The position numbers and the translations under genes were made by a program. A DNA stretch of 64,000 bases from an uncultured Bdellovibrionales bacterium (GTDB taxonomy: Bacteria; Bdellovibrionota_C; UBA2361; CAYQVO01): NCBI GenBank assembly GCA_964421085.1, contig CAYQVO010000002.1:91134-155133 (forward strand), given 5' to 3'. The notes beneath the pieces were generated by a model, which saw only the letters and a program-made list of their open reading frames with translations, was not told the origin of the DNA and ran no database searches. Every line of letters starts with the position of its first letter. Position 1 is the first letter of the stretch. Positions 1 to 58,052 of this stretch are shown here, piece by piece.

Positions 1-3000
1 GCCCATATGAAAATCCCACTGCCTCGACGATGGACGGTGTCCCTTTCACATTCTCGTTAAACCACTGAATCATCTCAGCTTCGTCACCATCGAGCTGGGT
101 AAGATAAGCTGTGCCGTCGATTGTGGGTCTCGGACCAGGTGTGCGCTGGAATGGAAGAAGTCCGGCAAGATTGATGAGAGAACCCACGCAGGCGACAGCG
201 ACGAGTGCGGCACCTGTCGCCAGTCCAATTATTGCCGTCCCGCGTTCAATCCAGGGAGCATCGGATTCCATGAAGTTCAGGTAGAGCGCGCGGCAGAAGA
301 CTACTGACGAAATACCGAAAAGAGTCCACAGAGCATGGTAGAACTTGAAGAGAGTGTTCGCCCTGTCCATAAGGAAATGAAGCTCAACTGTGCACAGAAT
401 CATGGACGCTGTGAAAACAAAGAAGAGGGTGAGCCTTGTTTCGCGGGAAATATTCTCAGCTGCGGCGGAGAATCCTGTGAACAGGAGTACAAGAGCGAAG
501 AAAATAAAAATGCTCCAGTGAATTTCGAAAAATCCCACGTCGACGCGCGGAGTGAGAACGTTCCACGATGCGAGAAGCAGAGGCAGCAGAGCGAGAATGC
601 CGGCAAATACAGCTTTGCGGGCAGTAATTCCCTCCTTGAGCGAGTTCAATGAAAACAGCAGAACTCCGGCCACGATAAAAGGCGCAAACTGCCCGAACAC
701 GCGAAAAATCTGCCAGCCGGTGTTGAACTCCTCTCCGGTCACAAAGCCGTAGTGCGGTGAAATGCTTTCCGATGCCTGGAGCAGCAGCGGCCCGCCCCCC
801 ACGCAGGCGCAGATGCCCATCAGTACAAGATCGGCAGGAACCAGAAGAGCCGCCCAGCGCCACTTTCGCGCGTTCCAGCCTTCACGGAATGCGAGGATCC
901 AGCGGAAAAGAAATATGAGACCGGCAATCGAGCTGTATGTTATGAAATCCCAGCTGTTTGTCGCTATCAGCATTCCAAGAACAATGCCCGCCAGAGCCTT
1001 TGAAAGGAAAAGCCTTGCTGAAAACAGATCATTGCTCCGGAAAAACAGCGATACGAGAAGGCCAAGCATCAGCAATGTGAATGGCAGTGCTATAAGGTGC
1101 GCATGAAGATCGCCGAACAGGTACGCCCAGAAGGGATATTCATTTATTCCCGGAGAATGAAGGGTCCTGCTGCTGGCCCAGTAAAGGTCGAATCCCCACT
1201 CCATTTTGTCGACGACAGCAAGCTTTACCACGTCGAGATTGGACATAAACACTATAAGGAACGCGCCTGGTATCGACCATTTTGAGGTGTTGGTGATTGT
1301 TTTCAGGGTTCCGTAGAAGCCCGCAAGATGAAGAGCTGCAATGACAGCAAGAGAGATATTGAAGCCCATTCCCGGGGGCGTCCCGGAGAGTTTCTGGAGC
1401 AGGCCGAAAAGATAGCTTCCGAAATAGTAATAGTGAAGAGGTCTTCCCGCCGCCCACGGATCATCCGGGGGCATTTTGAGAAGCCGGGTGAAATAGTTGA
1501 AAAACGCTGAATCCATCGGCTTTTCGCCCCAGAATATCTCAGGCTGCCATGCGCGGATCATCAGCACGACGATGAATCCCGCGAGAAAGACGATTTCAAC
1601 TGTGAAGCATTCTTTGAAGAGAGCTTTCGTGAGCTCCTTCAGGCGGTCGGGACCTGTCATAACGCAGGCGGCGAAAAGTATCGCAGTCAGAACAAGCAGG
1701 AGTGAAATGAGAGACTCCTGGGTAAGAGTGAACGGCGTCAGGAACGATAGATACCAGGCAAGGAGTCCAAAAAGCATGATGCCCGCGGGCTTTGAGAGAG
1801 CGGCCGCAAGAGCCGGCTGTCCGGGGAGGATCGGGGCAAGAAAAAAAACGCCGATCACGCCAAGTATGAGAATGATCGCATACCACACGGCGATCGCAGA
1901 GAATGGCGAAGGAGGATCCGAAGCCGGGGAACGTTCCAGGGCGGCGCTGAGCATTTCATCCATTGAGGGGAGATCCGGCCTCAGGACGTTTCGCCGGATT
2001 CGATCTTCGATCGTGGATGCGGGAAGTTTCTCCACATTCTCGAAAACATATGCTTTCGGATGGTCATATACCGAAATGCTTTCGTCCGCGAGATCGTCGT
2101 TGAAGGTGATCGGGCCGAAATGCGGCTGATTTTTTGTCGTATTGACGAGTTTGTAACCGATTTCACCTGTATAAAGCATCTGCAGGAAAGTAGTCGTGTA
2201 AGGCTGGGGCGAAAGCGGTTCCGGAAGCGGAGTCGTGGCGAGTCCTGGTATTGACCCCTGCATCCGCTGCGTGGCAAAGGTTATCCATTGCGCGCCGGAT
2301 GCCTGAGAAGCAATCTGCTCGAGCTTCAGCGAGTTGTCTTGTTCGTACAGAGCAAGCTCCGTGTCCTGCCCTTCGCTGTCATACTGGCGGCCGTCGTACC
2401 CGGGAAGAGAAACGGGAATCCGGTCGTCCCAGTGCGGGCCGATTATCCGGGACCCGGGTGCTGCGTGCTCGAAAATCCATTGAGAAACCGTGTGATAGGT
2501 ATGAGGCTGAGAAGTTATGCTCAGTATCGATGCGCCCCTGAAGAAAGCACAAAGGCACACTACCAGAACGGGAATAATCGCGAGGTACTTTCCGGCGCGC
2601 ATTTTCGAAAGCACCGCCATTATCTCGCCATACAGGATTACCAGAATTCTCGCGGCAAAAATAAAAAAGAGCGGATAGAGCGGAAGCATGTATCGGGGGA
2701 ATTTCACCTGGTATGCCGCAACCACAAGAAAATAAGGAATAACCCACGCGAGAATCATGGCCTCGCTGCTGTTGAATTTTCTCCGTTGAACGCACACAGC
2801 AAAGAGGACTCCGGCAAGAGAGGCGAGTCCTGCAGGCCATCCCATCGTATAAAGCAGCATCTGCTTTATGTGATAAAGCCAGGGAAGTGTGCCGACATAC
2901 TGCCATGTGTACGGGGCGAACCACCCTCCTTTGATAAGAGTAAGCTGCTCTCTCGTGTCGTGGAGATATTTCCGGTAATCGATGAATGCGTAAGGCTCGA

Positions 3001-3865
3001 CAATCAGAAAGGTGCAGAGCGCAATAGTCGCAATCTGCGAAAGGACCTGCAGCCGTCCGCTTCCACCGAGTCTCTTCGGCCACAGGGCGCCGAAGATGAC
3101 TGTGATACCGAATGCAGCAAAGCCTATTCTCCCGATTTCTGAAGGCGTGAACCGCCCGTCACGGACAAACGACAGGGGATCGGCAAGAAAGAATGCGGAC
3201 AACGTAAGCAGACTCACAACTGCAAGATCCGAGATGATTTCCCGCCATCTGTAGCGCCGGCCTTCGAGGTTGGTCAGAAAGAGCACAAAATAAAGCGGAA
3301 GCAGAAGTGACAGGGCGCTGACTTTCGTTCCGACTGAAAGCCCGAGAAGAACGCCGGCTGCAACCGGCCATATGTTCGAGCACCCCGGTTTAAGCCGGAG
3401 AAACGCGAGGAACGCTCCAAGAGCGAGTGTCGTCAGAATTATGTCGACTGTGAAAAAACGCGAAAGCTGAATATGAAAAAAGTTGAAAGAGAGAAGAATG
3501 GCGGCGAGAAGGCTTATGAAGCGGTTATTGTAAACGCGCTGTGCAAGCATGTATGTCAGAACGACGCCTGCAGTGCCGGAAATGACGGAAAGAGTCCTCC
3601 CGAGCACGAAGAGGCCATCGTAGGATCCGAGCCATTTCCAGAAAACTTCCGCGATACTCCGGAATATCCAGAGGAGATAAAACGGGAACGAGCCGTACGC
3701 GAAGGACTGCGGATTCAAATCGTGAAGCCTGAGCCGTTCGGCAACCATCATAATGTGCCGTTCATCCGGGTGATAACCGAAGCCGTGAGTGAGAAAAAGA
3801 ACCCGGAAGATAAATCCCCCCACTAACACGAGTAACAGGGGAAGGAATGACCTGAATTTCTGCAT
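1..3865 (-). CDS. Giant polytopic membrane protein, partial (over 1288 aa, runs off the window at position 1). N-terminus resembles GT-C/PMT (GT39, ArnT-like) glycosyltransferases and a later segment carries a DUF2298 'YYY' motif.
   Basis: Not in the ORF track, presumably because it has no in-window stop. Manual minus-strand translation from the ATG at 3865..3863 gives MQKFRSFLPLLLVLVGGFIFRVLFLTHGFGYHPDERHIMMVAERL... and stays open to position 1. The product is uniformly hydrophobic and W/Y/F-rich. A later segment reads ...WAAGRPLHYYYFGSYLFGLLQKL..., matching the conserved YYY motif of DUF2298 as I remember it. The many short plus- and minus-strand ORFs listed for 1..3860 are therefore spurious. 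Hand translation may hide a frame error. Confidence 0.55.
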   Translation of the reverse strand, partial: MQKFRSFLPLLLVLVGGFIFRVLFLTHGFGYHPDERHIMMVAERLRLHDLNPQSFAYGSFPFYLLWIFRSIAEVFWKWLGSYDGLFVLGRTLSVISGTAGVVLTYMLAQRVYNNRFISLLAAILLSFNFFHIQLSRFFTVDIILTTLALGAFLAFLRLKPGCSNIWPVAAGVLLGLSVGTKVSALSLLLPLYFVLFLTNLEGRRYRWREIISDLAVVSLLTLSAFFLADPLSFVRDGRFTPSEIGRIGFAAFGITVIFGALWPKRLGGSGRLQVLSQIATIALCTFLIVEPYAFIDYRKYLHDTREQLTLIKGGWFAPYTWQYVGTLPWLYHIKQMLLYTMGWPAGLASLAGVLFAVCVQRRKFNSSEAMILAWVIPYFLVVAAYQVKFPRYMLPLYPLFFIFAARILVILYGEIMAVLSKMRAGKYLAIIPVLVVCLCAFFRGASILSITSQPHTYHTVSQWIFEHAAPGSRIIGPHWDDRIPVSLPGYDGRQYDSEGQDTELALYEQDNSLKLEQIASQASGAQWITFATQRMQGSIPGLATTPLPEPLSPQPYTTTFLQMLYTGEIGYKLVNTTKNQPHFGPITFNDDLADESISVYDHPKAYVFENVEKLPASTIEDRIRRNVLRPDLPSMDEMLSAALERSPASDPPSPFSAIAVWYAIILILGVIGVFFLAPILPGQPALAAALSKPAGIMLFGLLAWYLSFLTPFTLTQESLISLLLVLTAILFAACVMTGPDRLKELTKALFKECFTVEIVFLAGFIVVLMIRAWQPEIFWGEKPMDSAFFNYFTRLLKMPPDDPWAAGRPLHYYYFGSYLFGLLQKLSGTPPGMGFNISLAVIAALHLAGFYGTLKTITNTSKWSIPGAFLIVFMSNLDVVKLAVVDKMEWGFDLYWASSRTLHSPGINEYPFWAYLFGDLHAHLIALPFTLLMLGLLVSLFFRSNDLFSARLFLSKALAGIVLGMLIATNSWDFITYSSIAGLIFLFRWILAFREGWNARKWRWAALLVPADLVLMGICACVGGGPLLLQASESISPHYGFVTGEEFNTGWQIFRVFGQFAPFIVAGVLLFSLNSLKEGITARKAVFAGILALLPLLLASWNVLTPRVDVGFFEIHWSIFIFFALVLLFTGFSAAAENISRETRLTLFFVFTASMILCTVELHFLMDRANTLFKFYHALWTLFGISSVVFCRALYLNFMESDAPWIERGTAIIGLATGAALVAVACVGSLINLAGLLPFQRTPGPRPTIDGTAYLTQLDGDEAEMIQWFNENVKGTPSIVEAVGFSYG

Positions 3866-3980
3866 CGGGAAAAGTAGCGAAAACCAATGTGAAAAAGCAC
3901 TATAATACTCCCAGAAAACACCGTTAAGGGAAATACCTGACCGGCAAAAAATCTTTGAATTCCGGCGGCTTAAAACGAGG

Positions 3981-4325
3981 TTGTCAACTGACAGGCACCG
4001 CACTACTCTCGCTTTGATGGGAAGGATCGAACGCGAAAGAAAGACCATTTCGGCAATGATCGCCATTTACTGTCATAATCGGCATAGAAGCCGGGATGCC
4101 GTCTGCCCGGCCTGTTTCGAGCTTCTCGAGTACGCCCATGATCGCCTTCAAAAGTGCCCGTACCGGGGGGGAAAGCTCTCGTGCAGGCTTTGTCCGACGC
4201 ACTGCTACAATGAGAACATGAAGGAGCGGATCAGGGGAGTTATGCGATTTTCAGGTCCCCGCATGCTGTTCCGGCATCCGGTTCTGGCGCTGCGGCACTT
4301 CCTTGATGAGCGCCATGGCTCGTAA
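3981..4325 (+). CDS. Small Cys/His-rich protein, YgbA-like (nitrous-oxide-stimulated promoter family)
   Basis: 114 aa with motifs IYCHNRH...CPACFELLEYAHDRLQKCPY...CRLCPTHCY...MRFSGPRMLFRHP. The cysteine spacing and a C-terminal 'GPRML' segment resemble YgbA-family proteins. Assigned from memory of the family only. Confidence 0.4.
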   Translation: MSTDRHRTTLALMGRIERERKTISAMIAIYCHNRHRSRDAVCPACFELLEYAHDRLQKCPYRGGKLSCRLCPTHCYNENMKERIRGVMRFSGPRMLFRHPVLALRHFLDERHGS

Positions 4326-4629
4326 CAAGAGCACAATCGAAAAAACAGCCCAAATGCATTCAACTCTCTATCCCGCCGCGAACGGTGTAAGAAGCGGCTT
4401 TCCATGATGATCCAAATCATCAGGACCCACATTCCGGCGCGCTAGCATCAACCCACAATACAAAATGGGTAGATTCGACGGCAGGCAGGCGAAGAGACTT
4501 CAAGAACGAAGCGTCTTCGCTTGCCTGAGAGTCTGGAAGGTTTTAAAGAGGTTTCACACCGGAGAGATTGCGCGATTCTTCTCGAGAAATGGCGCAAAAT
4601 CCAAATCTCTCCGGTTACAGGAGGCTGAC

Positions 4630-5133
4630 ATGAAAAGTGTCGGTTTTGCTATCGGCTGTGCGGTGCTGTGCGCGATTCTTTCGGGATGCAGTGGAGGATT
4701 CAACGGACACCCACCCCCACAAGGCTGCGACTGTGAAGAACTGGCGCGCCAGCTTGAGGCACGCGGCTGGGAGCTGTGGGTCGTGCAGGAGGGGGGCACC
4801 CCCAGGTCTCTCCAATACTGCACGGAAGCCAGTCCTCTCCGTGCGGGTGTCGACACGTGGTTCATGGCAAGGGTGAAGCCGGGAGACCGGCCGGCCAGGC
4901 TGATTTGCTTCCGGGACCTGCCGGACTGCGCCTGTGATTTCTGCCTGAAGGGGGGGATTGATCAGGAGGAACCGGACCAGGATGGGTCGTTTTCGTTCCG
5001 GTATGACCGGAATGAGGCGGCTGCAGTAACATTCGAACCCGGAAGATGGATGACAACCCGGGGAGTCCGTCTCTGCATCTGCGAGGTGGAGGTTGCGCTC
5101 CCGGGAGATCCGTATTCCTTCTGGGCCGAATAG
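4630..5133 (+). CDS. Lipoprotein, hypothetical
   Basis: Internal start MKSVGFAIGCAVLCAILSGCSGG has a signal peptide plus lipobox (LSGC) and is preceded by AGGAGG at about 4618. The listed ORF (4465..5133) has a long unlikely N-terminal extension. Cys-rich mature part. Confidence 0.45.
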   Translation: MKSVGFAIGCAVLCAILSGCSGGFNGHPPPQGCDCEELARQLEARGWELWVVQEGGTPRSLQYCTEASPLRAGVDTWFMARVKPGDRPARLICFRDLPDCACDFCLKGGIDQEEPDQDGSFSFRYDRNEAAAVTFEPGRWMTTRGVRLCICEVEVALPGDPYSFWAE

Positions 5134-5207
5134 TACCGCCCTCGCAGCAAAGGTACCTGTCTGAGGTTTTCTGCGGATCGTTGCAGAAAGGTCATCGCTG
5201 CAGACCC

Positions 5208-6653
5208 TCAGGCAAGTACCTTCTTTTCGAAACACTGATTCGAAGAACACTGCTTTGAAGGACACTGTCCGTTCCAGCAGTAAAGGCAGAGTCTCTCCCT
5301 CGGGAGACCGACAGCTTCCACCAGATCGTCGATGCGCTGGTAGCGGAGAGTTGTTGCTCCGAGATCCTTTACAATCCAGTCCACCATCTTTCCATGCTTT
5401 GTTGTCGATTCATCGACGTATTCGCGCACGTCCTCGATATCATGGCCTTCGATAGCCTTAATCGCCTTTCTGGCAGCCAGTTCCTTCCGCGATCTTGTCG
5501 AGAGATTGAACCGGCAGGGGAACATCAGCGGAGGGCAGGCAGCTCTTACATGAACCTCCGTTGCTCCCGCATCCCAGAGCTTTGAGACCGTATAATTCTT
5601 CAACTGCGTTCCCCGGACGATGGAGTCTTCGCATACGGTTATCCTGTTGCCGTCGATGATTTCCTTTATCGGAACGAGTTTCATTGTGGCGACAAGGTCC
5701 CGTGTTTTCTGGGACGGCGGCGTATAGCTTCTTCCGTATCCAGGAGTGTATTTTACAAGAGGACGCCTGAAAGGTTTTCCGCTTTCCATCGCATACCCGA
5801 CCGCGTGAGCGACCCCTGAATCGGGAACTCCGGCGACCATATCGGTGTCGATATCAGTGTCCCTTCTGGCAAGGGCGCGCCCGCAGTTTTCACGCACAAT
5901 TTCAGCGCTGATTCCCTCGTAACTCGACGCGGGAAATCCGGCGTACACCCAGAGGAACGTGCAAATCTGCGCGTCAGTGCCGCCGGTTGCCTCTGTTTTC
6001 CATCCCTTTTCATCGATCAGTACAACTTCCCCCGGAGCGAGTTCGTAAACTGCCTTGTACCCATTGTTTGAGAAAGCGGTAGTCTCACTTGCCACCGCTG
6101 TGCCGTCATCGCGCGAGCCAAGCACGAGAGTCGTGTATCCTCTGCGATCTCTTGCAGCGTAAATGCCCTTTTCATGAAGAAGGAGCAGGGAACATGATCC
6201 TTCAATCACACTGAACATGTGCTTGACACCCTGCGTGATGGAGCCGCCCCGCGTAATGAGCTTTGCGACCAGTTCCGTCATGTTCACAGTTCCGCGGCTC
6301 ACCTCGGAAAACGAGAGCCCTTCCTCCATGAGCTGCAGCGAAAGTTCGTGCGCGTTTTCGATGAAGCCGATAGTTGCGAGGCAGAACCGTCCGAACTTCG
6401 AATGAATGTATACAGGCTGCTCATCAAGGGAACTTACGGCACCGATTCCTTTATTGCCCTCCAGCCTCCGGCCGTGTTCAAAAAACTTCCCCTTGAACTG
6501 GCTGTGACTGATGTTGTGAATTTCGCGGACAAATTCGCAGTTAAGTACCGCGATGCCTCCGAACTCGGTTCCCATATGCGAATGGTAGTCGGTTCCGTAA
6601 ATAAGTGTTTCGTAACAGTCGTTTGTGGATACGACTCCGAAAATACCGCTCAT
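5208..6653 (-). CDS. purF: Amidophosphoribosyltransferase (glutamine PRPP amidotransferase)
   Basis: 481 aa. N-terminal MSGIFGV...CYE matches a class-II glutamine amidotransferase with Cys2 nucleophile. Central PRTase motif VCEDSIVRGTQL. C-terminal cysteines are typical of the 4Fe-4S type PurF. Confidence 0.9.
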   Translation of the reverse strand: MSGIFGVVSTNDCYETLIYGTDYHSHMGTEFGGIAVLNCEFVREIHNISHSQFKGKFFEHGRRLEGNKGIGAVSSLDEQPVYIHSKFGRFCLATIGFIENAHELSLQLMEEGLSFSEVSRGTVNMTELVAKLITRGGSITQGVKHMFSVIEGSCSLLLLHEKGIYAARDRRGYTTLVLGSRDDGTAVASETTAFSNNGYKAVYELAPGEVVLIDEKGWKTEATGGTDAQICTFLWVYAGFPASSYEGISAEIVRENCGRALARRDTDIDTDMVAGVPDSGVAHAVGYAMESGKPFRRPLVKYTPGYGRSYTPPSQKTRDLVATMKLVPIKEIIDGNRITVCEDSIVRGTQLKNYTVSKLWDAGATEVHVRAACPPLMFPCRFNLSTRSRKELAARKAIKAIEGHDIEDVREYVDESTTKHGKMVDWIVKDLGATTLRYQRIDDLVEAVGLPRERLCLYCWNGQCPSKQCSSNQCFEKKVLA

Positions 6654-7040: not shown

Positions 7041-8207
7041 TCAAAACTCCCACAGCGCTTCTACAACTTTCAGCCTCGAGGCGCGCCATGCAGGGAGGAT
7101 TGATCCGAGAAGACCCATAATCAGCGCAAACACAAGCGACTCAAAGGCAATTACCGGAGTAAGTGCGAAACGGAACGTGAGATCGGAAAATGTCTGAAAA
7201 TTGGTCGTAGAAAACGCCTGCCCCGCGAGCATAGATGAAATCAACAACCCAAGCAGTCCTCCGCCAAGCGCAAGGAGCATGCATTCGAGAATGAAAGAAA
7301 ACAGGATTGTCCAACGCGAAAATCCAAGAGTGCGCAGGATCGCAATCTCCCGGATTCTCTGAGACACAGCAGCGTACATCGTGATCATGCAACCGATAAC
7401 TGCTGCCAGGCTGAAAACCATGCTGACAAAAGTTCCGAGGAAGCGGATGAACTTCGCGAGAATGGCGCTTTGCGATTCATAGTAAGCCTGCTCACGAAAA
7501 ACATTGACGCTCAGCCTTTTGTCGTTCTCGAGCTCCTTTTTGAGCGACGGAAAGTCCGCGCCCGGTGCGAGCCGAAACAGAACCGACGAAAAAGCGTCCC
7601 GCTTGAAAACCGGCATCATCAAGTCGGCGTCGCCCCAGATTTCAGAACTGAAAGAAGAGTCGCCGGCGTCGAAAATTCCGGTAATCTTCCATCCGGTGCC
7701 GGCAAGCCGGAGGGTCTCTCCGACATCTGTGCCTGCAAACCGGCGGTGTACAGCGCTTCCAACCATTATTTCCCGTGTTCCGCGCGCCGGCATTCGCCCC
7801 TGTGTGATCCTGGTACCTTTTCTCAGTTCAAAAGCTTCCGGAAATACTCCACGTACACTGATGTTACCCGGATCTCCATTGCTCCGCCTTTTCAGCGAGA
7901 GCAGAACGATGACATCGGCAGTTCCCGCGGGAGCGTTCTCCGAATTCCGGGCGACAGCCGGATGCGACAGAATTATGCGCGCCTGATCACGCGTGAGCGC
8001 GCTCTGCAGCTCATTCTCCGCTCCATTTCTCAGGACGATTACATTGCCGGGCGCGCCCGATCTGGCGAGTGTTTTTTCGAGTCCCTCTGAAAGCATGAGG
8101 GTGGCGGCAAACACGACCACCACCATTGCCACGCCAAAAAGGGTGAGAATACTGGTTGTCCGGCGTCGGAACAGATAGCGGGCATTATATGAAAACACGA
8201 GCGGCAT
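7041..8207 (-). CDS. ABC transporter permease, FtsX/MacB-type
   Basis: 388 aa. N-terminal TM helix, large periplasmic domain, then three C-terminal TM helices (FtsX fold). Last gene of a four-gene operon. Confidence 0.8.
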   Translation of the reverse strand: MPLVFSYNARYLFRRRTTSILTLFGVAMVVVVFAATLMLSEGLEKTLARSGAPGNVIVLRNGAENELQSALTRDQARIILSHPAVARNSENAPAGTADVIVLLSLKRRSNGDPGNISVRGVFPEAFELRKGTRITQGRMPARGTREIMVGSAVHRRFAGTDVGETLRLAGTGWKITGIFDAGDSSFSSEIWGDADLMMPVFKRDAFSSVLFRLAPGADFPSLKKELENDKRLSVNVFREQAYYESQSAILAKFIRFLGTFVSMVFSLAAVIGCMITMYAAVSQRIREIAILRTLGFSRWTILFSFILECMLLALGGGLLGLLISSMLAGQAFSTTNFQTFSDLTFRFALTPVIAFESLVFALIMGLLGSILPAWRASRLKVVEALWEF

Positions 8208-8210
8208 ATC

Positions 8211-9380
8211 TCAAGAAGCTCTCAGCGAGTCGATCAAGTTCATCTGTTGAAGGCGCAGGTAAGGCACAACTCCGGCAAAAAGTCCCACAACAAGCGTAAT
8301 ACAGAACGCCTCCAACAGAATAATGAGATCGAAGGGAAACTTCGGGAATACGGAAGCGAGCTGGCCGAGAACGAACTTCGCGGATATTCGGAACACCGGA
8401 ATGACCAGGATGCACAGAAGAACAAACCCGGCAATCGAGACGGCGAGAGACTCGAGCGCGAGGAGGAGTCCGATTCTGGATTTTGGAAAACCAAGCGCGC
8501 GCATTATCCCGTATTCTCTGTACCGTTCCCTTGTCGCCATCAGCATGGTGTTCGTAAGCACGAGAAGAATAATCGGAATTACGACAAGCGAGATGAGGTC
8601 CATTGCCAGAAGCAGAGCGCTTGACATCGATATGAAGCCCTGAATGAAAGCCGTTTCTGTTTCCGTCAGGGTTTCAGCGAAGCTGTTCGCGAAGAGAGCG
8701 TCAATAATACGGGATACCGAAGCTGTATTCGCGCCGGGGGAAAGCTTGACCGCAAAGTATCCGACGTAATCGGCCTGCTGACCGAAATCTGATGCTCTTA
8801 TCTGTTCATTGAGATAATCGTAGTGAAACAGCATGAACCTGTTGTCTCTGGTTCCGTCTTTCGGATAGAAAACACCCCGCACAACGAACTCCCAGTTTCC
8901 CGGATAGATTGTTCCCTTGAGGTTTATGACGTCACCTGGTTCGAGGCCATATTTTGCGGCAAGATCCCGGCCCAGCAGCATTCCGCGCCGGTCCATTTCG
9001 TATGCCCGCCTTTGTGCAGGGTCGACGGCGAACTCAGAGTATACATCGAGATAATTGTCGTCGACCGCGAACTGCGCAAACTGAAATGTTTCATCCTTAT
9101 AATTTCCGTTGAACCAGCTTCCGCTTGTGACCATATCGACACCAGTAACGGCGGAGATGCGCGCCTGGTACGATTTTGGGAGAGGAAACACCAGAGACAT
9201 GGCGTTCCGCGTCACGAGGCGGTCCTGAGCGGACTCCGTGACGCCTTCGTGCCATGCATTGAGGAAGGTCCGGATCATGAAAAATGCGAGGAGAGCGACA
9301 GATATGCCGAGAGCAGTGAGAAAAGCGCGAAGCGGATGCCGAAGTGTGTTGCGAAGAACGAGCGTCAAATACTGGTTCAT
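8211..9380 (-). CDS. ABC transporter permease, FtsX/MacB-type (second copy)
   Basis: 389 aa with the same architecture as the neighbouring permease. Start overlaps the ATPase stop (9377..9380). Confidence 0.8.
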   Translation of the reverse strand: MNQYLTLVLRNTLRHPLRAFLTALGISVALLAFFMIRTFLNAWHEGVTESAQDRLVTRNAMSLVFPLPKSYQARISAVTGVDMVTSGSWFNGNYKDETFQFAQFAVDDNYLDVYSEFAVDPAQRRAYEMDRRGMLLGRDLAAKYGLEPGDVINLKGTIYPGNWEFVVRGVFYPKDGTRDNRFMLFHYDYLNEQIRASDFGQQADYVGYFAVKLSPGANTASVSRIIDALFANSFAETLTETETAFIQGFISMSSALLLAMDLISLVVIPIILLVLTNTMLMATRERYREYGIMRALGFPKSRIGLLLALESLAVSIAGFVLLCILVIPVFRISAKFVLGQLASVFPKFPFDLIILLEAFCITLVVGLFAGVVPYLRLQQMNLIDSLRAS

Positions 9381-10054
9381 GCCGTTTTCAGCTGCCCTTT
9401 ATCCAGGTGCACGGTGCGGGACGCAAAAGAAGCGACGGCCTGATCGTGCGTGACTACGAGAATGTTCTTGTGAAACTCCGTGTTGAGACGCAGCAGGAGT
9501 TCCATGACTTCGGTAGCGGAATGTCTGTCGAGATCGCCGGTGGGCTCGTCGGCGACAATAAGCGTGGGGTCAGTGACTATTGCCCGCGCAACCGCCACCC
9601 TCTGTTCCTGTCCTCCGGAAAGCTGCGACGGGAAATGATGCATTCGGTCTGAAAGCCCCGTAATTTCGAGCGCGAACTTCGCTCTTTCAGTTCTCTCTGC
9701 CTGGGTCATATCGAAAAGCGCCAGCGGCAGAGCGACGTTTTCAACAGCGGTGAGCACAGGCAGCAGATTGTAAAACTGAAAAACAAACCCGACGTGGGAA
9801 GATCTCCATGCAGCGAGGCCTGCATCGTTCAATGAGGAGAGCTCCGCATCCCCGACCACGACACTTCCGGAATCGGGCGTGTCGAGCCCGGCGATCAGAT
9901 TCAGAAGAGTAGTCTTGCCGGAGCCCGACGGACCCATCAGCGCCACAAACTCGCCCGCATGCATCGAGAAAGAAAGTCCTTCAAGAACTGTGATGGCAGT
10001 GTCGCCACGCCGGAAAGATTTGGAAACGGAGTCGACGCGGATAAGGTCGGTCAT
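9377..10054 (-). CDS. ABC transporter ATP-binding protein (MacB/LolD-type)
   Basis: 225 aa. Walker [10 protein letters not shown], signature [14 protein letters not shown], Walker [13 protein letters not shown]. Confidence 0.9.
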
Positions 10055-10986
10055 GATTCCTTCAGCTTGAATTCCACCTTCGCGCTCATCTCAGGAATTA
10101 CCCTGCTGTCGAGATCCACGAAACGTATCTTTGTAAGTACCGTCGCTTTTGCCCTGTCGACTGTGGGAACGATCTTGTCGACGACTCCTCTGTATGTATG
10201 ATCGGGAACTGAATCAAGGACGATGGAACATTCCTGGCCGACAAATACTTTGGAAAGATTCGACTCGTTGACGTCAGCTTCCACCTGAAGAGAATGCATG
10301 TCTGCAAGAGTGGCAATCGCGGCGCGCGCGTTCGTCGATGAGCCGAAAGGAGCGACGATTTCTCCAACCTCTGAAAACTTCTTGAGCACGGTGCCGTCGA
10401 AGGGCGCACGGACACAGGTGTATTCCAGCTCTGTCCGCACTCTCGATAATGCAGCCTGCGAAAGGCTGACTTGCGCATTTGCGGCGTCGAGCTGGGCTTC
10501 ATTTTTCAGCACACGCGTTCTTGCCGTGTCCAGGTCCGACTGGGAACTGAAAGAGGACTTTCTGAGCTGTTCGATTCTTTCGCGATGAAGCTTCGCTTCC
10601 TGCAGTTCGGCCTGAACGGAAGAAACATTCGCCATTGCAGCAGCAACTGCAGCCTCGCTCTCTCTTACGGCAGCCTGAAGATCGTCGTTTTCCAGCACGC
10701 CGAGGATCTGTCCTTTTGTGACAAGATCACCCTCTTTGATGTTCAGTTCCTTCAGCCGTCCGGTAGCTTTTGACGAGACAGCCGCAGATCGTTGCGCCAC
10801 AACGTATCCAGTGGCGTTCAGGATGCTGCTTCTGTGAGGCCCGCTGGAAACAGAAACGGTGCCTGCCGGGAGAGGTGCTGCCCCGATTCCAGCCGGATTA
10901 TCCCCGCTGCTCTTCAGCAGGTAAGGGAGCAGTATCGCCGCCGCCGCGATTACCCCAAGTACACCGAGGAACCGTTTCTTCCTCAT
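10051..10986 (-). CDS. HlyD-family periplasmic adaptor (membrane fusion protein)
   Basis: Coiled-coil region (AELQEAKLHRERIEQL...), lipoyl/beta-barrel motifs, and an N-terminal TM helix after MRKKRFLGVLGVIAAAAILL. The likely start is the ATG at 10986; the ORF track extends the frame to 11178. Confidence 0.75.
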   Translation of the reverse strand: MRKKRFLGVLGVIAAAAILLPYLLKSSGDNPAGIGAAPLPAGTVSVSSGPHRSSILNATGYVVAQRSAAVSSKATGRLKELNIKEGDLVTKGQILGVLENDDLQAAVRESEAAVAAAMANVSSVQAELQEAKLHRERIEQLRKSSFSSQSDLDTARTRVLKNEAQLDAANAQVSLSQAALSRVRTELEYTCVRAPFDGTVLKKFSEVGEIVAPFGSSTNARAAIATLADMHSLQVEADVNESNLSKVFVGQECSIVLDSVPDHTYRGVVDKIVPTVDRAKATVLTKIRFVDLDSRVIPEMSAKVEFKLKES

Positions 10987-11370
10987 AAAAGGGACCGCTT
11001 TTTTGTCAGGTATGCTCAACCGCGAAAGATCAGCCGAATTTCTTTCGTTAACCATCGAAACCGGAGGAAGTGAGGCAAAAATTCCCCGACCTGCGTTTCT
11101 CAGGAATTGCAGGCCGGAACCGCGACAGCCATTGTAGTTGAAGCATGCAGGAATCACAACGTACTCCACATCTGACATGGAAGAATACAGGTTTGGCCGC
11201 TTTTGCGAGGGCGCTCCCCTGCGTCAAACCTGCACGGCGCCGCTGCACACAGCTTTTCGCGGGTGACTACTGGATTATTCGCGGAATCGCGCCACCGCCG
11301 GGAAAAAGGGGGGGCATCTGCTTGACACGCCCGACAAGTAGAGATATTCGCAAATTCGAATAAATTCTTA

Positions 11371-12174
11371 ATGAAGGGGAATGCCATGCATAAGAGTGTG
11401 CCTGTGAAGTTGTTTTGTGTGTTCGCCGTGTTTATTCTTTCATGTCTGCCGATTTCTGTTTTTGCCGAGTGCGATCAGACAGATCCCTGCGCTCCCAAAA
11501 AAACAATCGGGGAGTGGGACAAGAGTCTCGCCTTCGGCCTGAATCTTACGTCCGGAAACAGTGAGACAACCCTGGTAAGTCTTATGGGAGCTGCGGGCCT
11601 CGAAAGGGATAAAAACTTGTGGGACCTCAGCGCAAGCTATTACTTTGGCGAGGACAAGACCAACGAGGTTCCCGGGGTGGACACGACAACAAGGAATGAC
11701 TTCCGGGCTGCTTTTGCCTACAAGAGGCTTATTGACGAGCGGTGGTATGGGTCCGGGAGCGTCGGTTTTCTATATGATGAGATTGCCGACGTTGATTACC
11801 GGGTCACCCCGGGGGTCAGCGCAGGAAATTTCCTGCTCAAGGACGCAGACTTCAAACTCTCGCTGGAGGCGGGACCTTCCTACGTATTCGAACGAGTTGG
11901 TGGAGAGGATAAGAATTATTTTGCGCCGCGTATCGCCGACAGATTCGACTGGATCATAAGCTGCACTTCAAAGGTATATCAGCTGGCTGAGATTCTTTTC
12001 GACATAGAAGACTCGAAGAACGTGCTGGTAAATGCCGAAGTCGGAATTGAGGCTGCTATTGCCACGAATCTTGCGCTCGTGCTCTCCGTGAAAGAAACCT
12101 TCGACAACGTGCCCGCGGAGGGACGCAAGAAAGATGACCTCATCGTGACCACTGCGCTGAAGGTCTCGCTGTAA
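11371..12174 (+). CDS. Outer-membrane beta-barrel protein, DUF481-like
   Basis: 267 aa. Signal peptide, then alternating amphipathic segments (LAFGLNLTSGNSETT..., SASYYFGEDKTN..., AAFAYKRLIDERWYGSGSVGFLYDE...) typical of the DUF481/YdiY family. Sits next to the efflux operon. Confidence 0.5.
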   Translation: MKGNAMHKSVPVKLFCVFAVFILSCLPISVFAECDQTDPCAPKKTIGEWDKSLAFGLNLTSGNSETTLVSLMGAAGLERDKNLWDLSASYYFGEDKTNEVPGVDTTTRNDFRAAFAYKRLIDERWYGSGSVGFLYDEIADVDYRVTPGVSAGNFLLKDADFKLSLEAGPSYVFERVGGEDKNYFAPRIADRFDWIISCTSKVYQLAEILFDIEDSKNVLVNAEVGIEAAIATNLALVLSVKETFDNVPAEGRKKDDLIVTTALKVSL

Positions 12175-12175
12175 A

Positions 12176-12230
12176 AAAAATGGGGACGGTTCCTATTTCC
12201 GCAGCGGAAATAGGAACCGTCCCCATTTTC
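12176..12230. terminator. Bidirectional rho-independent terminator between convergent genes
   Basis: Near-perfect 23-bp inverted repeat, aaaaaaaaTGGGGACGGTTCCTATTTCCGC a GCGGAAATAGGAACCGTCCCCAttttc. It has an A-run on one side and a T-run on the other, immediately after the stop at 12172..12174 and before the convergent stop at 12230. Confidence 0.75.
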
Positions 12231-14926
12231 TACCACGTGACTTTCTTTGTCTTCTTCGACACAGCAGGCGATTTTGCCGAACCGTTCTTCGAAGCGCTTA
12301 CAATCACAAGGAGCTTTTTGCCGACATCCTTTGAGCCCACTTTGTACTTGTTTTTCTTTGCATTCTTTATGTTCTTGCAGGTCTTGCCGCACCGCCGCCA
12401 CTGATAAGAAATCGTAAGCTCTTCGACTCCATTCCATGAACCAGCTGACGCAGAAAGAGTGGTACGGGCTCTGGCTTTGCCTTTAATCTTCGGAAGTTTC
12501 GAATTTTTCGGCGCAATGATTGCGCTTGGAGTCCCGCCGGCTTCTTCCGACATGAGGTCGTCATCGACAGTGACATAAATTCTGACTCTGTTTCCAGCAT
12601 CCAACGGTCCCAGGACATAGCTTGTGCCCGTCTGGCCCGAAATGTCGTAGCAACCGGCGCCACTTGCGGAGCACCGCTGCCATTGTCGCGCACTGACTGT
12701 CTGGGTTCCAAAGCCCGACCACGTTCCGGAATCAACCTGTGAAAGCGTCTCACCGTCTTTTGCCGTGCCGGCAGGAGCGGCAGGAGCTGCGGTGTTGATA
12801 AGGGGCGTAACATTCGCAAGGTATGCCAGCGGGGCACTATCAGTTCTTGTGAAAAACCCTCCCGCAAAAACCCGGTCGGAAGATGCATTTACAGTCATAA
12901 TGACCGGTGGAAGAAACAACGGGTTCCACTGGTCAGCAAGTCCGGTAACAGGATCGAGGGCAGCAATGCCATAGCGTACCCCCTGTCCAATAGTCGAGAA
13001 ATGCCCTCCGGCAATTATTTTGCCATTGAAGGCGGCGAGAGTTTGAACGACGGAGTTGGACTGAGGATCCCAGTCTGTCAGAGATCCATCAGATCTGTTG
13101 AACTGTGCCAGGAAGCGCCTCGGCTTTCCACCTATCGCTGGAAACGCACCCCCCGTGTAAATATAGTCGCCGTCGATCAAAATGGCCGTTACGGAGCTGA
13201 CGGGTGATGGGTTCCAGCTTTTAACAGCACCTGCTGAATCAAAAGCCGCAGCGTATGTCCGGATTACAGGTCCTGGAAACAAGGTGAAATCTCCACCTGC
13301 GTATACAGTCCCGTCGGTGTCGATTGCCAGCGATAAGCATGCGCTGTTCGCATTCGGATTCCAGCCCGTAAGTGTTCCAGTGGAAGTGTCAATGGCAGCG
13401 AGGTTATTACGGACATTACCCAGAACACTGTTGAATGCTCCGCAGACATAAAGAGTGTTCCCTGAGGATTTAAGCGCCCACGTTTCTCCGATGACATTCC
13501 CGTCGAACGCCTGAACTGTTCCTGCGCTGTCTATTGCTGCAAGAGATGAGCGCAGCTGTCCTCCTATGCTTTCGAAATTTCCACCTATGTATATCATGTC
13601 GCCAATGGGAAGAATCGCTAAAATTGTCCCGGTGACAGGAACGTCAAGAGAAGTAGCAGCGCCTGTTGTCAGATCGAAAGCGGCAAAAGCCTTTCTGCTG
13701 ACCATCCCGGTTGAAAAGACGTCTCCGCCAAATGCTATTGAAGTTCCGTTGGATGCAATTGCTGACACGCCGCCTCCAAGCGATGGATTAAATGCCGTAA
13801 GGCTTGCTGAAGGGATATCGTACGCAGCAATACCTCTCTGGCTTGCCCCGCCTGTAACTGAGAGGAAATCGCCCCCGAGAAAAAGAGTGCTCCCAGATAC
13901 AGCGATAGCGTTGACAGATGCATTTGCGCCGGGATTCCAGGGCGAGAGCACCCCGGCGCTGGAAATAACAGCGGCCTTACCTCTGGCAACGGCGCCTATG
14001 TGAGTGAAATTACCACCCACAACTATCATAGCGCCTAAAATTGATGCGAGAGAATAAACGGGTCCGTTAGGATCGGGATTCCATGCGTTTATAACTCCTG
14101 TGGTTGCGTGTACCCGGCCGAGATAGTCACGGGAAGCCCCTGCCAGAGAATTAAGCCCGTTAAATCCGCCGCCCACGATCAGAGCAGTATCAGAGAGCAG
14201 CGACAGGGCGTTAACGCTTCCGGTGGCTCCCGGATTCCAATCTCGCAGAGTACCAGCGGGAATATTAACCGCTGCGAGCCTGTTCCTTAACTGACCACCA
14301 AATGAGTTTGCGCCGTTGAAATCTCCGCCCACATAAAGAACGGAATTCGTACTGTTAATAACAAGAGCCCTGACGGAGTCATTTAAATCCGGGTTCCAGT
14401 CTGTGGCTGCACCAGTGGTTGCGTCAATTGCAGCAAGGTAACTTCGGATCTTTCCCCCGATAAATGTGAAGTCGCCTCCCACATAAAGAACATTTCCGCT
14501 GCGGGCCATTGTGAGGACAGCATTATCCGCATCCGGAGCGAAATCAGGGTCGACGGTTTTGTCCGCACGGATATGCGCAATATTTTTTCTGACGAAAGTG
14601 CCCACTTGAGTAATATCCCCCCCGATGTACCAGCCGCCGCTTCCATCGGGCAAAATCGTCCTGATTTCTCCTGTCACACGAGCCCATCCGGATTGAGCGA
14701 CACCCGTGGCAGGATCTGAAACAGCAAATGCCCCGGTGGCAGGCCCGACATTATCGAAAAATCCTCCCGCATAAAGGGTGTTGCCGGACTGGGCAGTCGC
14801 AAAGACAGGCCCGTCAGTCACCCACAGTTCCTGAGCAAGTCCTTCTCCTGTCAGAAGCAATGAGCAGAGGAAGAGGACATGATGCAACAATGCGGCAAAC
14901 GAAAAACACGCAGGTTTCGATTTCAT
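12230..14926 (-). CDS. Secreted multi-bladed beta-propeller repeat protein with C-terminal Ig-like repeats and a Lys-rich tail
   Basis: 898 aa. Signal peptide MKSKPACFSFAALLHHVLFLCSLLLTGEGLA. At least 12 repeats of about 50 aa with the motif LYVGGDFxxIGGxxRxxLAAIDxxTGxxxxWNP, as in delta-60/DUF5122-type propellers. Two C-terminal modules contain (R/Y)QWQRC...GxxC motifs. The last 50 residues are Lys-rich (KNIKNAKKNKYKVGSKDVGKK...KKTKKVTW). Confidence 0.7.
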   Translation of the reverse strand: MKSKPACFSFAALLHHVLFLCSLLLTGEGLAQELWVTDGPVFATAQSGNTLYAGGFFDNVGPATGAFAVSDPATGVAQSGWARVTGEIRTILPDGSGGWYIGGDITQVGTFVRKNIAHIRADKTVDPDFAPDADNAVLTMARSGNVLYVGGDFTFIGGKIRSYLAAIDATTGAATDWNPDLNDSVRALVINSTNSVLYVGGDFNGANSFGGQLRNRLAAVNIPAGTLRDWNPGATGSVNALSLLSDTALIVGGGFNGLNSLAGASRDYLGRVHATTGVINAWNPDPNGPVYSLASILGAMIVVGGNFTHIGAVARGKAAVISSAGVLSPWNPGANASVNAIAVSGSTLFLGGDFLSVTGGASQRGIAAYDIPSASLTAFNPSLGGGVSAIASNGTSIAFGGDVFSTGMVSRKAFAAFDLTTGAATSLDVPVTGTILAILPIGDMIYIGGNFESIGGQLRSSLAAIDSAGTVQAFDGNVIGETWALKSSGNTLYVCGAFNSVLGNVRNNLAAIDTSTGTLTGWNPNANSACLSLAIDTDGTVYAGGDFTLFPGPVIRTYAAAFDSAGAVKSWNPSPVSSVTAILIDGDYIYTGGAFPAIGGKPRRFLAQFNRSDGSLTDWDPQSNSVVQTLAAFNGKIIAGGHFSTIGQGVRYGIAALDPVTGLADQWNPLFLPPVIMTVNASSDRVFAGGFFTRTDSAPLAYLANVTPLINTAAPAAPAGTAKDGETLSQVDSGTWSGFGTQTVSARQWQRCSASGAGCYDISGQTGTSYVLGPLDAGNRVRIYVTVDDDLMSEEAGGTPSAIIAPKNSKLPKIKGKARARTTLSASAGSWNGVEELTISYQWRRCGKTCKNIKNAKKNKYKVGSKDVGKKLLVIVSASKNGSAKSPAVSKKTKKVTW

Positions 14927-35300: not shown

Positions 35301-38300
35301 ATGGATCCGAACAGGCTGATAATCGACTTTAAAAAGCAACTTGGTAACAGAAACACCTCCGCTGTTCATGCTCTCGATATCTTCCGTGATTTGAGAGACG
35401 TTCTGGAGCAGGAAACAAAATCCGATCCTCTCCTTGCCGCAATAAGGGAAAATATACTGCGGCTTTTCATGCAGAGATCCTGTCTGCTTCCCGACCTGGA
35501 ACGTGAGGCGGCTGTTTTGAACCTGATTCTTCAGGATTCCCGTTCCAATACTGCTGAAATATCCTCCGGGCTGGAAGAATGGGGGCGCTCAGTCGCGGAA
35601 CTTTCTGAAATCCTGCGTGGAATCAAAACCCATGTGACACAGATGGCGACGCGACACCGTATGACGGAGCAGAAACCTTCCGTGGTCCGGATTGAAAACA
35701 GTAATTTCAGCGAGGCTCGTGAACTCAATATAAAGATCCTCGCCTGCGAGATGCTGCTTGGCAGCACCGATCCGGCTCCCTTTCCTCCGAACATGCAGGT
35801 GGAATCAACCAGCAGGTGCAATGCGCGGTGCAGAATATGCGGGCACTTCTTCCATCCCGCCAGGGCATACAGAGATCTCGATTTTCAGGTGTTTCTCAAA
35901 TTGTCGCCCGTTCTTCCGTATGTCCAGTGCCTTGAACTGCACACTTATGGAGAAGCCTCTCTCGCGCCGCATTTCACCGCCATGTGCGAAGTCTGCAGGA
36001 GCTTCGGCTGCAGAACGCATGTGCTTACAAACGGCTCGACTCTTGGGGTGGATAGTCCCCTGGCAGACGTAGACCAGATTGGAATCAGCGTTGATTCAGA
36101 CAACGAACGCACCTTTGACGCCGTCCGCAAAGGGCTGCGGTTCAAAACAGTGATCGAAAACATCAAAGCGTTTCGCCGGCGGAATCCGGACAATTTCATG
36201 TACTTTCTGGTGACGATACACCGGGCGAATGTAGATGAAATATCCGGCATAGCCGGACTAGCCTGCGATCTGGGCCTTCAGGCCGTCTGCCTCAGTCTCA
36301 TGTCGGCCATTCATCCGTCACTGCGGCCGGTCACTTTAACGGCCCAGGACGTTCCTCTTTACCGGGAGGAAGTGGAGAAAGCAGAAAGAATCTGCTCGAA
36401 GCGCGGCGTAGATGTGTATGATTACGCTTTTCTGGACGGTCTCCCCGATCAGACGGAACCTCTGAACAAGGAGGCATGTTTAAGGGTGTTCGAGTCGCTT
36501 ATCCCTCCATCTGCCGGCGCGCCGCCCGATATTGAAGAGTTGACAACGAGGCTCGCAAAGATTGAGTGCGGCGCATATCCTGCGTCCCTGCACCGGTTTT
36601 TCACACTGGAAGCCGCGTCTTTCGAATCCACTCGAAAAGCGGAGATCGAAAGAGTCCATGAAGACACTTCTATGGAACCTGTCACGGTCGATACCGGCAG
36701 GCTGAAGGAACGGCTGCATGAACTCCGGAGTGAAATAGAAAGGCGGGGCAGGGATGCGCTCGTAATTCCGTACTGTACCGCCCCCTGGTTCAGGCTTGAA
36801 GTGAAGGCGGACGGAGGGATCTTCCCCTGCTGCAGCTGGAAAGGACCACCGTTTGCCGATCTTGCAGTTCAGTCTGTCGCGGAGATATGGCACGGGCCGT
36901 TCATGACGGCGCTCAGGCAGGGATGTTACGGCGAAGGAGAACTCCCTCCTTTCTGCCTGAACTGCAGGAGCATAGACCGTTATCAGGGCCTGACTGAAAC
37001 GATCAGCACGATGAACGAATTCGGCCTGGACTATAACACAATCCGGAAGATTCCCGGGTTTTCTCCTCCGCCCGGGAAACTCCAGCTTATACGCGCGGGC
37101 GCGCCGGAGATTGAATACGTTCCCATTGATAAATCGTATCCGGGAGGATTTTACGAACTCCGGGGGGATGCAGAAGGGCGGGGGAACAGGAGCAGTGGTT
37201 ACGACTTTGTCATCTCGCCCGGCCCCAGGCTCTTCTGCGAAAGACCTTCGAGCATGCGAAGCAGAAAGATTTCCTGTGGAGTTCTCGGCGGCGCTTCCCT
37301 TCCTTTGAAGGACATCCTGAAGCTCGAAGGACGCCCGCGTGTATCGATAACAGAAACCGCTCATGAATTATTCCCCTCCGGTCTTTTGTTTGTGTCTGTC
37401 CGTTTCCGTAATGAAGGTGAAGTGCCGCTCTTCGGCAGGGATTCGCATCCCGATTGCGTGGACAGAGCGGGACTGCGCGTGCTTAAGCAGGAAGCCGGAG
37501 TCACATCGGCAGCGCGTGAAGAAAGAATGGATATGCCGTTTGAGTGGATACTCCCCGGATCGGAGTACCATATCTCGGGACTCTTTGACTTCTCGGGCCT
37601 TGAACCCGGGACATACACGGTGGAGACAGGAATTGTCCGGGAAGGAGAATTCTGGATTTCGGAGGAATCTGAACGGCGAAGCTTTGAAATAACCACGGCA
37701 GAAGCCTCAACCATGACTCCTGTCGAAGTGTCGAGAGTTCCGGGATCGAAAGGGATTGCGCTTACATTCGACGCGGGAGCGTCAATACCGCCTTCGGACG
37801 CCCTTCTCGATTTTCTGCAGAAGAGGCGGATGCAATGCACAGTTTTTCTGACCGGGAGGTCGATAGCCTCTTTTCCTGAACATGCGCGTCGCATCGCGAA
37901 TGAGGGGCATGAAGCGGCAAACCACACATACAATCATCCATGGCTGTCCTTTCTGCACGATCCCCATCCGGCGCAGGGAGTGGACAAAGACTTTCTCATG
38001 AAAGAGCTTTATTCCACCGAAGAGGCCTTCTTCAAAACGACAGGGCGCACGATGTCGAGACTCTGGCGGGCTCCCTACGGAGCAAGAAACGCGGAGATTC
38101 TCAAATGGGCGATGGAAGAAGGATTTACTCACGTTTTCTGGTCGCACGATTCAAACGACTGGAGGATAGGCTCTTCCCTTAATTCCATGAAGTGTACCCC
38201 GCAGAGCGTCTTTGAGACGCTTAAGAACAAACTTCGCCAGTTTGATGATGCCGATGGCGCTGTAGTTCTATTTCACCTCTCGACCTACAATCAACCGGAC

Positions 38301-57632: not shown

Positions 57633-58052
57633 TCAAGGCTTAGCCTTGAACATCTCCTGAACTTTGCTGAGAGCCTCGGGAGTGCCTTCCGCTCTCAGTT
57701 CATTGATTTTTATGAGATCATCTTTATTCCTCAGTACAGCTTCGTACGCTTCCTGCGCCGTCCCCTGGATATATTTTTCTTTGTCTGTGCCGGAGCGGTT
57801 TCTGATTTCCTGAAGGGTCCTGAAGATTTTGAAATCGCGCTCCATCCGGGCGATTTGTCCTGCCTCAGGCGCGGCGGATGCTGTGTCCAGAGAAGCCAGC
57901 TGAGCACCCTTGAAACCCATTTCCTCTGCAATACCTGCGAGTCGTTCTTCCATAAAAAAAACCTCCTTCCCAAACCTCTTAATGATGGATACCCAGGGAA
58001 CAGGCATAGTGTGACAAAAACATGGGCATTTATTTACGCCAGGCATGTGCAC
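57633..58052 (-). CDS. Hypothetical protein
   Basis: 139-aa ORF. A helical, charged protein is likely from the internal Met (MEERLAGIAEEMGFKG..., about 57986). Confidence 0.35.
   Translation of the reverse strand: MHMPGVNKCPCFCHTMPVPWVSIIKRFGKEVFFMEERLAGIAEEMGFKGAQLASLDTASAAPEAGQIARMERDFKIFRTLQEIRNRSGTDKEKYIQGTAQEAYEAVLRNKDDLIKINELRAEGTPEALSKVQEMFKAKP

Follow-up and report, generated by a model that had tools for sequence, protein, structure and literature searches.

A PMT-like module and a DUF2298 'YYY' module joined in one very large membrane protein of an uncultured Bdellovibrionales bacterium

Does the left end of this sequence hold one real gene for a very large membrane protein, and if so, what might that protein do? 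The window, i.e., the whole stretch of DNA analysed here, is 64,000 nucleotides long and comes from an uncultured Bdellovibrionales bacterium (contig CAYQVO010000002.1, positions 91,134 to 155,133). The gene in question lies at its left edge on the minus strand, and its product, which we call the fusion protein, joins an N-terminal module resembling PMT glycosyltransferases (the N-module) to a C-terminal DUF2298 'YYY' module (the C-module). We find that the gene is intact and that the fusion protein probably consists of two complete GT-C glycosyltransferase modules placed head to tail, which would couple two steps of one pathway.

One intact reading frame

When translated exactly from the ATG at 3865, the minus strand reads through 1288 codons to the window edge with zero stops, and the product begins with MQKFRSFLPLLLVL. 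A database protein, P0001, is 100% identical and has a full length of 1407 amino acids (aa), so the final 119 aa fall beyond window position 1. A preliminary description of this DNA, made by hand translation, had reported an uninterrupted frame from this ATG and a polypeptide of over 1288 aa, both of which these results bear out. It had also seen only short overlapping open reading frames (ORFs) in the ORF track, and this is indeed all that the track lists for 1-3865. The giant ORF is absent from the list because the list omits ORFs which run off the end of the sequence. None of the five shadow ORFs scanned in this interval, on either strand, has a Pfam match.

A long open frame can be non-functional: it may have arisen by chance, be a pseudogene or be a chimera of two neighbouring genes made in assembly. 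The window does cut the ORF, so its stop codon lies beyond the edge, and in some relatives the two modules are separate genes. However, chance cannot give 1288 codons without a stop, an identical full-length protein is on record (P0001), dozens of independent assemblies show the collinear fusion, at 26-56% identity, and every conserved residue is retained. The base composition fits as well: in the first two 2-kb bins the plus strand has a strong A>T skew (0.21 and 0.18), as expected where a membrane-protein gene rich in T is encoded on the minus strand. We therefore consider a non-functional frame extremely improbable, indeed effectively refuted, and conclude that window 2-3865 (-) is a genuine, intact gene whose product is a very large protein of the inner membrane.

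Translation probably starts at the ATG at 3865: this position agrees with the N-termini of P0001 and of P0002, a homolog with 55% identity, and the in-frame starts further upstream (4003, 4048 and 4066) would make the gene overlap its divergent neighbour, which encodes a YgbA_NO ('nitrous oxide-stimulated promoter') family protein (3981-4325, +; Pfam 6e-40). A sigma-70-like promoter match sits in the 115-bp intergenic region between the two genes (Table 1).

Family membership and fold

The preliminary description had assigned a PMT/GT39-like N-terminus and a DUF2298 'YYY' motif to the same polypeptide and had suggested searches with the PMT_2 and DUF2298 hidden Markov models. When run, both of these models matched above cut-off, as did Pfam PMT at the N-terminus and TIGR03662 across the C-module, each judged by its curated threshold (Table 1). 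By its profile matches, the fusion protein is a clear PF10060/TIGR03662 member which is PMT_2-like at its N-terminus. We call the N-module PMT-like, not a true GT39 PMT, because it matches only part of the profile and because neither a MIR domain nor the C-terminal TM bundle PMT_4TMC was found in the fusion protein by Pfam at E<=1. A single-sequence search of the PDB with the fusion protein gave no match, and a profile search gave Pmt1, Pmt2 (E=0.001) and one other PMT, with E values from 1e-3 to 1e-2; triosephosphate isomerase matches in the same profile search were spurious.

Hydropathy and AlphaFold (AF2) secondary structure divide the chain into the parts listed in Table 1: two transmembrane (TM) domains, each followed by a soluble alpha/beta domain, with three extra TM helices between the two modules. 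Residues 654-1237 contain approximately 16 helical TM segments, and the YYYxG sequence lies inside a strongly hydrophobic region of ~700 residues. Lysine and arginine make up 32% of the predicted cytoplasmic loops of the N-module and 11% of its other loops, which puts the N-terminus on the cytoplasmic side and the two soluble domains on the periplasmic side. For a second module with a cytoplasmic N-terminus to follow a periplasmic domain, the number of linker helices has to be odd, as it is here, and the same three helices are also found in stand-alone DUF2298 proteins.

We modelled the two halves separately with AF2, each with a 51-sequence alignment. The N-module model has a predicted local distance difference test score (pLDDT) of 89.4 and a predicted template modelling score (pTM) of 0.90, and the C-module model has a pLDDT of 92.2 and a pTM of 0.93. 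The leading structural matches of the N-module are AglB (29.3), ALG12 (27.7), Pmt4 (26.2), ArnT (25.1) and STT3B (24.9), and those of the C-module are ALG12 (17.9), Pmt4 (16.0), Pmt2 (16.0), ArnT (15.8) and AftA (15.6, with 488 residues aligned), followed by ALG9, AglB, STT3B, PglB and AftD. In these models, both modules share the multi-TM GT-C fold of solved glycosyltransferases that depend on lipid carriers, and the fusion protein also has the globular 'central core' domain fold seen at the C-terminus of oligosaccharyltransferases (OSTs). As modelled, it is two GT-C enzymes of similar general build in one chain.

The case for homology between the two modules is structural, since a profile-profile comparison of one with the other by hhalign was not significant (E ~0.008, probability 5%). 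That non-significant alignment places HPDE opposite EKPMD, just past the first core helix, with the first TM helix of the N-module opposite residues ~760-780; in the soluble domains, it places 'ASxWIYENxPxGS' opposite 'AIxWLxxNVxGTP'.

The AglB resemblance raises the question of whether one or both modules are OST-like. Such a module would move a pre-assembled glycan en bloc from a polyprenyl-diphosphate carrier onto proteins of the periplasm, in N- or O-linkage, and its AglB-like soluble domain would recognise the acceptor peptide. AglB is the top structural match, and the soluble domains are AglB-like; in isolation, these domains match no Pfam family even at E<=10. Against this, there is no STT3-family match in the fusion protein at E<=1 in Pfam or NCBIfam, its sequence profile leans to PMT, and the canonical WWDYG motif is not present in it. 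The sequences that come closest to it are HWDD (478-481) and GWDYH (1304-1308), in which only W and H are conserved across the family. We judge an OST-like mechanism to be unlikely, and on profile and motif evidence the fusion protein should not be classed as an OST.

Candidate active sites and proposed function

Conservation was assessed in 163 homologs of the N-module and in 228 members of the C-module family, both fused and stand-alone. Among the N-module positions conserved in at least 90% of homologs are D34/E35, Y57/G58, R90, Q133, D141 and K181, along with K388 (94%), R391 (98%) and Y392 (98%) and, in the soluble domain, W463, W479 (100%) and D594-E595-S596...D601-H602-P603. D34 and E35 belong to HPDE at residues 32-35, so the HPDE-containing start given in the preliminary description is correct.

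In the C-module, the first-loop motif is conserved at E781 (98%), K782 (95%) and M784 (98%), with D785 below 80%. The 'YYY' signature that the same description had reported is also present, within PLHYYYFG, and is conserved at Y812 (99%), Y813 (88%), Y814 (97%) and G816 (96%). The D-x-H-x-H motif is conserved at D919 (99%), H921 (100%) and H923 (100%), and the basic motif near the end of the core at R1168 (94%), N1170 (100%) and K1174 (99%). Other conserved positions are W896, R900, E909 (100%) and W972 in the core, and E1281, Y1287, R1292, G1298, W1305, H1308, R1322 and E1356 in the soluble domain. The fusion protein carries the consensus residue at all of the positions listed for both modules, and its only departures from the 90% consensus are conservative hydrophobic or aromatic swaps.

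The arrangement of these residues is similar in the two modules. A helix map built from AF2 helices and the positive-inside rule puts all of the conserved motifs in loops on the periplasmic side, and equivalent loops carry equivalent residues: an acidic residue in loop 1, an Asp in loop 2 and K/R-x-x-[RK]-Y before the last two helices, with K388-F-x-R391-Y392 of the N-module paralleling the R1168-Y1176 motif of the C-module. In the structures of GT-C enzymes such as ArnT, PglB and PMT, such loops hold the catalytic acid, the metal site and the phosphate-binding residues. On this predicted topology, the placement of the motifs in both modules would match those sites.

Table 1. Features of the fusion gene and its product (window positions; residue numbers refer to the 1407-aa protein)
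Feature	Residues	Window position	Strand	Remarks
Coding sequence	1-1288 of 1407	2..3865	-	stop-free frame; 100% identity to P0001
N-module membrane domain	1-452	2510..3865	-	~13 TM helices; GT-C fold, PMT/PMT_2-like
N-module soluble periplasmic alpha/beta domain	453-653	1907..2509	-	H-W479-D-D and D594-E-S-x-x-V-Y-D-H-P603
Three extra TM helices	654-737	1655..1906	-	from AF2 secondary structure; periplasm to cytoplasm ahead of second core
C-module core membrane domain	738-1237	155..1654	-	~13 helices; DUF2298/TIGR03662 'YYY', GT-C fold
C-module soluble alpha/beta domain	first 51 residues (whole: 1238-1407)	2..154	-	rest beyond window
H32-P-D-E35	32-35	3761..3772	-	candidate catalytic acidic motif; first periplasmic loop of N-module
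E781-K-P-M-D785	781-785	1511..1525	-	candidate catalytic motif; first periplasmic loop of C-module
Y812-Y-Y-F-G816	812-816	1418..1432	-	'YYY' signature
D919-L-H-A-H923	919-923	1097..1111	-	D-x-H-x-H; candidate metal or phosphate site; second periplasmic loop predicted from AF2
R1168-A-N-T-L-F-K-F-Y1176	1168-1176	338..364	-	basic motif; predicted periplasmic loop before last two TM helices
PMT (Pfam)	89-197			33.1 bits (cut-off 22.7), 5e-8; profile positions 85-198 of 245 only
PMT_2 (Pfam)	89-222			31.9 bits (cut-off 26.1)
DUF2298 (PF10060)	698-1183			246.9 bits (cut-off 27.8), E=6e-73; profile positions 1-488 of 488
TIGR03662 Chlor_Arch_YYY (NCBIfam)	655-1287			330 bits (cut-off 300.25), despite missing last 119 aa
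TIGR03663 (Agl23)	71-436			9.5 bits (cut-off 126.25), E=0.45; below cut-off
Sigma-70-like promoter match		3899..3927	-	TTAACG-17-TATAGT; consensus match only; ~34 nt upstream of ATG
A8 run (T8 on coding strand)		1841..1848	+	GTT TTT TTT = Val-Phe-Phe in TM helix

The two-enzyme reading, which we hold to be probable, can be set out as follows. The N-module (residues 1-653) would be a distant PMT/PMT_2 (GT39/GT83-like) enzyme with D34-E35 in its first periplasmic loop, and the three linker helices would bring the chain back to the cytoplasm. The second module (738-1407) would have E781 in the equivalent first loop, D-x-H-x-H in the next periplasmic loop and the basic R/N/K motif near its end, and would end with its own periplasmic domain, of the 'central core' type known from AglB/STT3. 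Going by the fold family, each module may take a sugar from a donor linked to polyprenyl-phosphate and pass it, on the periplasmic side of the inner membrane, to an envelope acceptor (a glycan, lipid or protein), and the fusion would couple two consecutive additions in one pathway, probably together with a downstream DUF2298 paralog (see below). Catalysis, donor type, acceptor and step coupling are what we infer; glycosylation of envelope proteins or lipids by the fusion protein, as the preliminary description had suggested, is plausible.

An alternative is that one module, or even both, would act not as a transferase but as a flippase or scramblase of lipid-linked sugars, or as a non-catalytic scaffold which presents substrate to the other module. 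There are precedents in Agl23 (PMC11182771) and in PIGU/GAB1 of the glycosylphosphatidylinositol transamidase. However, the TIGR03663 score leaves the N-module outside the Agl23 family, PIGU and GAB1 score far below catalytic GT-C enzymes, and the loops of the two modules retain acidic, His and basic residues that hardly vary, which goes beyond the needs of a scaffold. We therefore think it improbable that either module is non-catalytic.

A bolder reading is that the DUF2298 'YYY' module, which has a conserved AglB-type periplasmic domain, is an unrecognised sister lineage of the OSTs, and that fusions of PMT-like and YYY modules, with their downstream paralog, are a widespread, unstudied envelope-glycosylation machine with both active sites on one chain. 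We regard this as possible though rather doubtful. If true, a periplasmic or outer-surface glycan would be built or attached by this machine in bacteria of the Bdellovibrionota/SAR324-like, Myxococcota, Acidobacteriota and Chloroflexota groups.

Distribution, genomic setting and comparison with known systems

How widespread is the fusion? A word-indexed search gave at least 374 clusters at 90% identity with E<=1e-10, most of which combine PF10060 with PF13231 and/or PF02366. An exhaustive search with the C-module gave 4,327 representatives at 50% identity with E<=1e-3, 433 of which reach 1e-30. Of the best 150 representatives, 50 (1258-1930 aa) share the four-part architecture of the fusion protein, a further 27 (~980 aa) pair the YYY module with a soluble domain, and in 68 (~730 aa) the YYY module stands alone. 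Some variants of 1600-1930 aa (P0016, P0019 and P0020-P0032) add an NHL/SGL-type beta-propeller to the two GT-C modules.

Relatives are encoded by at least 592 loci among the GTDB species representatives, and the best 80 of these loci are in Bdellovibrionota, Oligoflexia, Binatia, Myxococcales and Acidobacteriota/Thermoanaerobaculia, as well as in Chloroflexota (Dehalococcoidia, Anaerolineae and SAR202). The closest homolog, NMC62094.1 (55% identity), is from a metagenome-assembled genome (MAG) labelled SAR324 and is named 'phospholipid carrier-dependent glycosyltransferase' by NCBI. The preliminary description had noted that such proteins are described mainly from Chloroflexi and Archaea, and had considered one of this size notable in a diderm; this ground for interest does not hold, since the best 80 loci span several other bacterial groups. 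This wide distribution, which includes Bdellovibrionota and the SAR324-labelled homolog, makes a diderm host normal for the family, and judging from these database searches the architecture is neither rare nor surprising there.

An exact-sequence look-up of P0001 gave no record, and what lies past the window edge was judged from a syntenic relative. In the closest one, the SAR324-labelled MAG locus L081, the gene order is a divergent YgbA_NO gene, the fusion gene and a stand-alone DUF2298 paralog (5759-6555, +), which starts 37 bp downstream of the fusion gene. The YgbA_NO-fusion pairing is common to the window and L081, so a stand-alone DUF2298 paralog probably lies immediately downstream of our fusion gene, just left of position 1. 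Closer relatives in general have one to three extra adjacent YYY-type paralogs, sometimes with GT4 or GT2 genes; loci with such extra paralogs occur in Bdellovibrionota, Binatia and Myxococcales (L001, L002, L039 and L003-L007). Both the recurrence of the PMT-like fusion and the paralogs beside it speak for a single periplasmic glycosylation pathway in which these enzymes take part. Across the 80 loci, ORF clustering found no neighbour from outside the family in more than 14, the most frequent being Chloroflexi housekeeping genes such as TrkA, GAPDH and enolase, and tblastn found no GT2, GT4 or GT-C paralog in the rest of the window.

The T8 tract in the coding strand had also been pointed out in the preliminary description. 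The run is real, and its position was given four bases off, at 1845..1852. The window holds three A8 runs (1841-1848, 12173-12180 and 57954-57961) as its only A/T runs of eight or more, where ~0.9 would be expected from base composition. We considered phase variation at this tract and rejected it, as the tract encodes a Phe-Phe codon pair and similar runs occur elsewhere in the window. The run shows no sign of significance.

Other genes of the window are recorded here as observations in their own right. Two overlapping ORFs (4465-5133, +, and 4615-5265, -) have no Pfam match, and the sole recognised domain of a 481-aa ORF (5208-6653, -) is a GATase_7 glutamine amidotransferase domain. A MacB-type tripartite exporter operon (7041-11178, -) encodes an HlyD-family adaptor, an ABC ATPase and two MacB_PCD/FtsX permeases, and a DUF481 gene lies beside it on the opposite strand (11371-12174, +). 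An 898-aa ORF (12230-14926, -) has only weak beta-propeller matches (Rax2 C-terminal and DUF5122), and a 1029-aa ORF (35301-38390, +) is an unusual fusion of radical SAM, SPASM and polysaccharide deacetylase domains. Further to the right are genes for a transpeptidase-domain protein (48451-49749, -), a PBP2-type penicillin-binding protein (54147-56051, +) and an IMP dehydrogenase (58827-60335, +), the last of which shares 84% identity with its counterpart in a SAR324-labelled MAG and ~72% with those in MAGs of Oligoflexia and Bdellovibrionota.

In the searchable literature, we found no experimental study of the DUF2298/YYY family, and DUF2298 is mentioned in just two papers, each time in passing. 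The 'YYY domain' of the literature is the Y_Y_Y domain of hybrid sensor kinases, which is unrelated to DUF2298, and matches to 'Agl23' are mostly plant MADS-box genes. The fusion architecture is common, can be recognised with standard HMMs and already carries annotations from automated pipelines. Our analysis adds model-based, fold-level evidence that DUF2298 is a module of GT-C type and has a periplasmic domain like that of AglB, and it maps the residues of the probable active site. The wider YYY family is a knowledge gap, with ~4,300 representatives at 50% identity, a predicted GT-C fold, OST-like periplasmic domains and conserved candidate sites, and the adjacent paralogs and recurrent fusion are a starting point for de-orphaning DUF2298.

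Compared with PMT (GT39) and ArnT-type PMT_2 (GT83) enzymes, the window protein has a Pfam match spanning only ~110-135 residues, a structural identity of 11-15%, an AglB-like soluble domain that follows the final TM helix, and a second GT-C module. A luminal MIR domain in loop 5 is a feature of eukaryotic PMTs. The window protein differs from AglB, STT3 and PglB (GT66) in having neither an STT3 match nor WWDYG, and in a profile that favours PMT over OST. AftA, AftB, AftD, EmbA/B/C and the luminal ALG3/9/12 have one GT-C module per polypeptide plus carbohydrate-binding or other soluble domains, and PDB sequence and profile searches found no sequence-level relationship of the mycobacterial GT-C and ALG3/9/12 enzymes to the fusion protein.

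The closest comparison is with the PMT_2+DUF2298 fusions that NCBI names 'phospholipid carrier-dependent glycosyltransferase', 'glycosyltransferase family 39 protein' or 'YYY domain-containing protein'. There is no essential difference from the DUF2298/TIGR03662 family: the window protein has lineage-specific insertions (706-713, 1107-1124 and 1360-1376), and it lacks the NHL/SGL beta-propeller of the 1600-1900-aa Binatia and Acidobacteriota variants. It is like the DUF2298/TIGR03662 fusions in its match to the full profile, in YYYxG, in the family-invariant residues, in its two-module architecture and in its length (~1300-1400 aa), and its gene is an ordinary member of this known, experimentally uncharacterised family.

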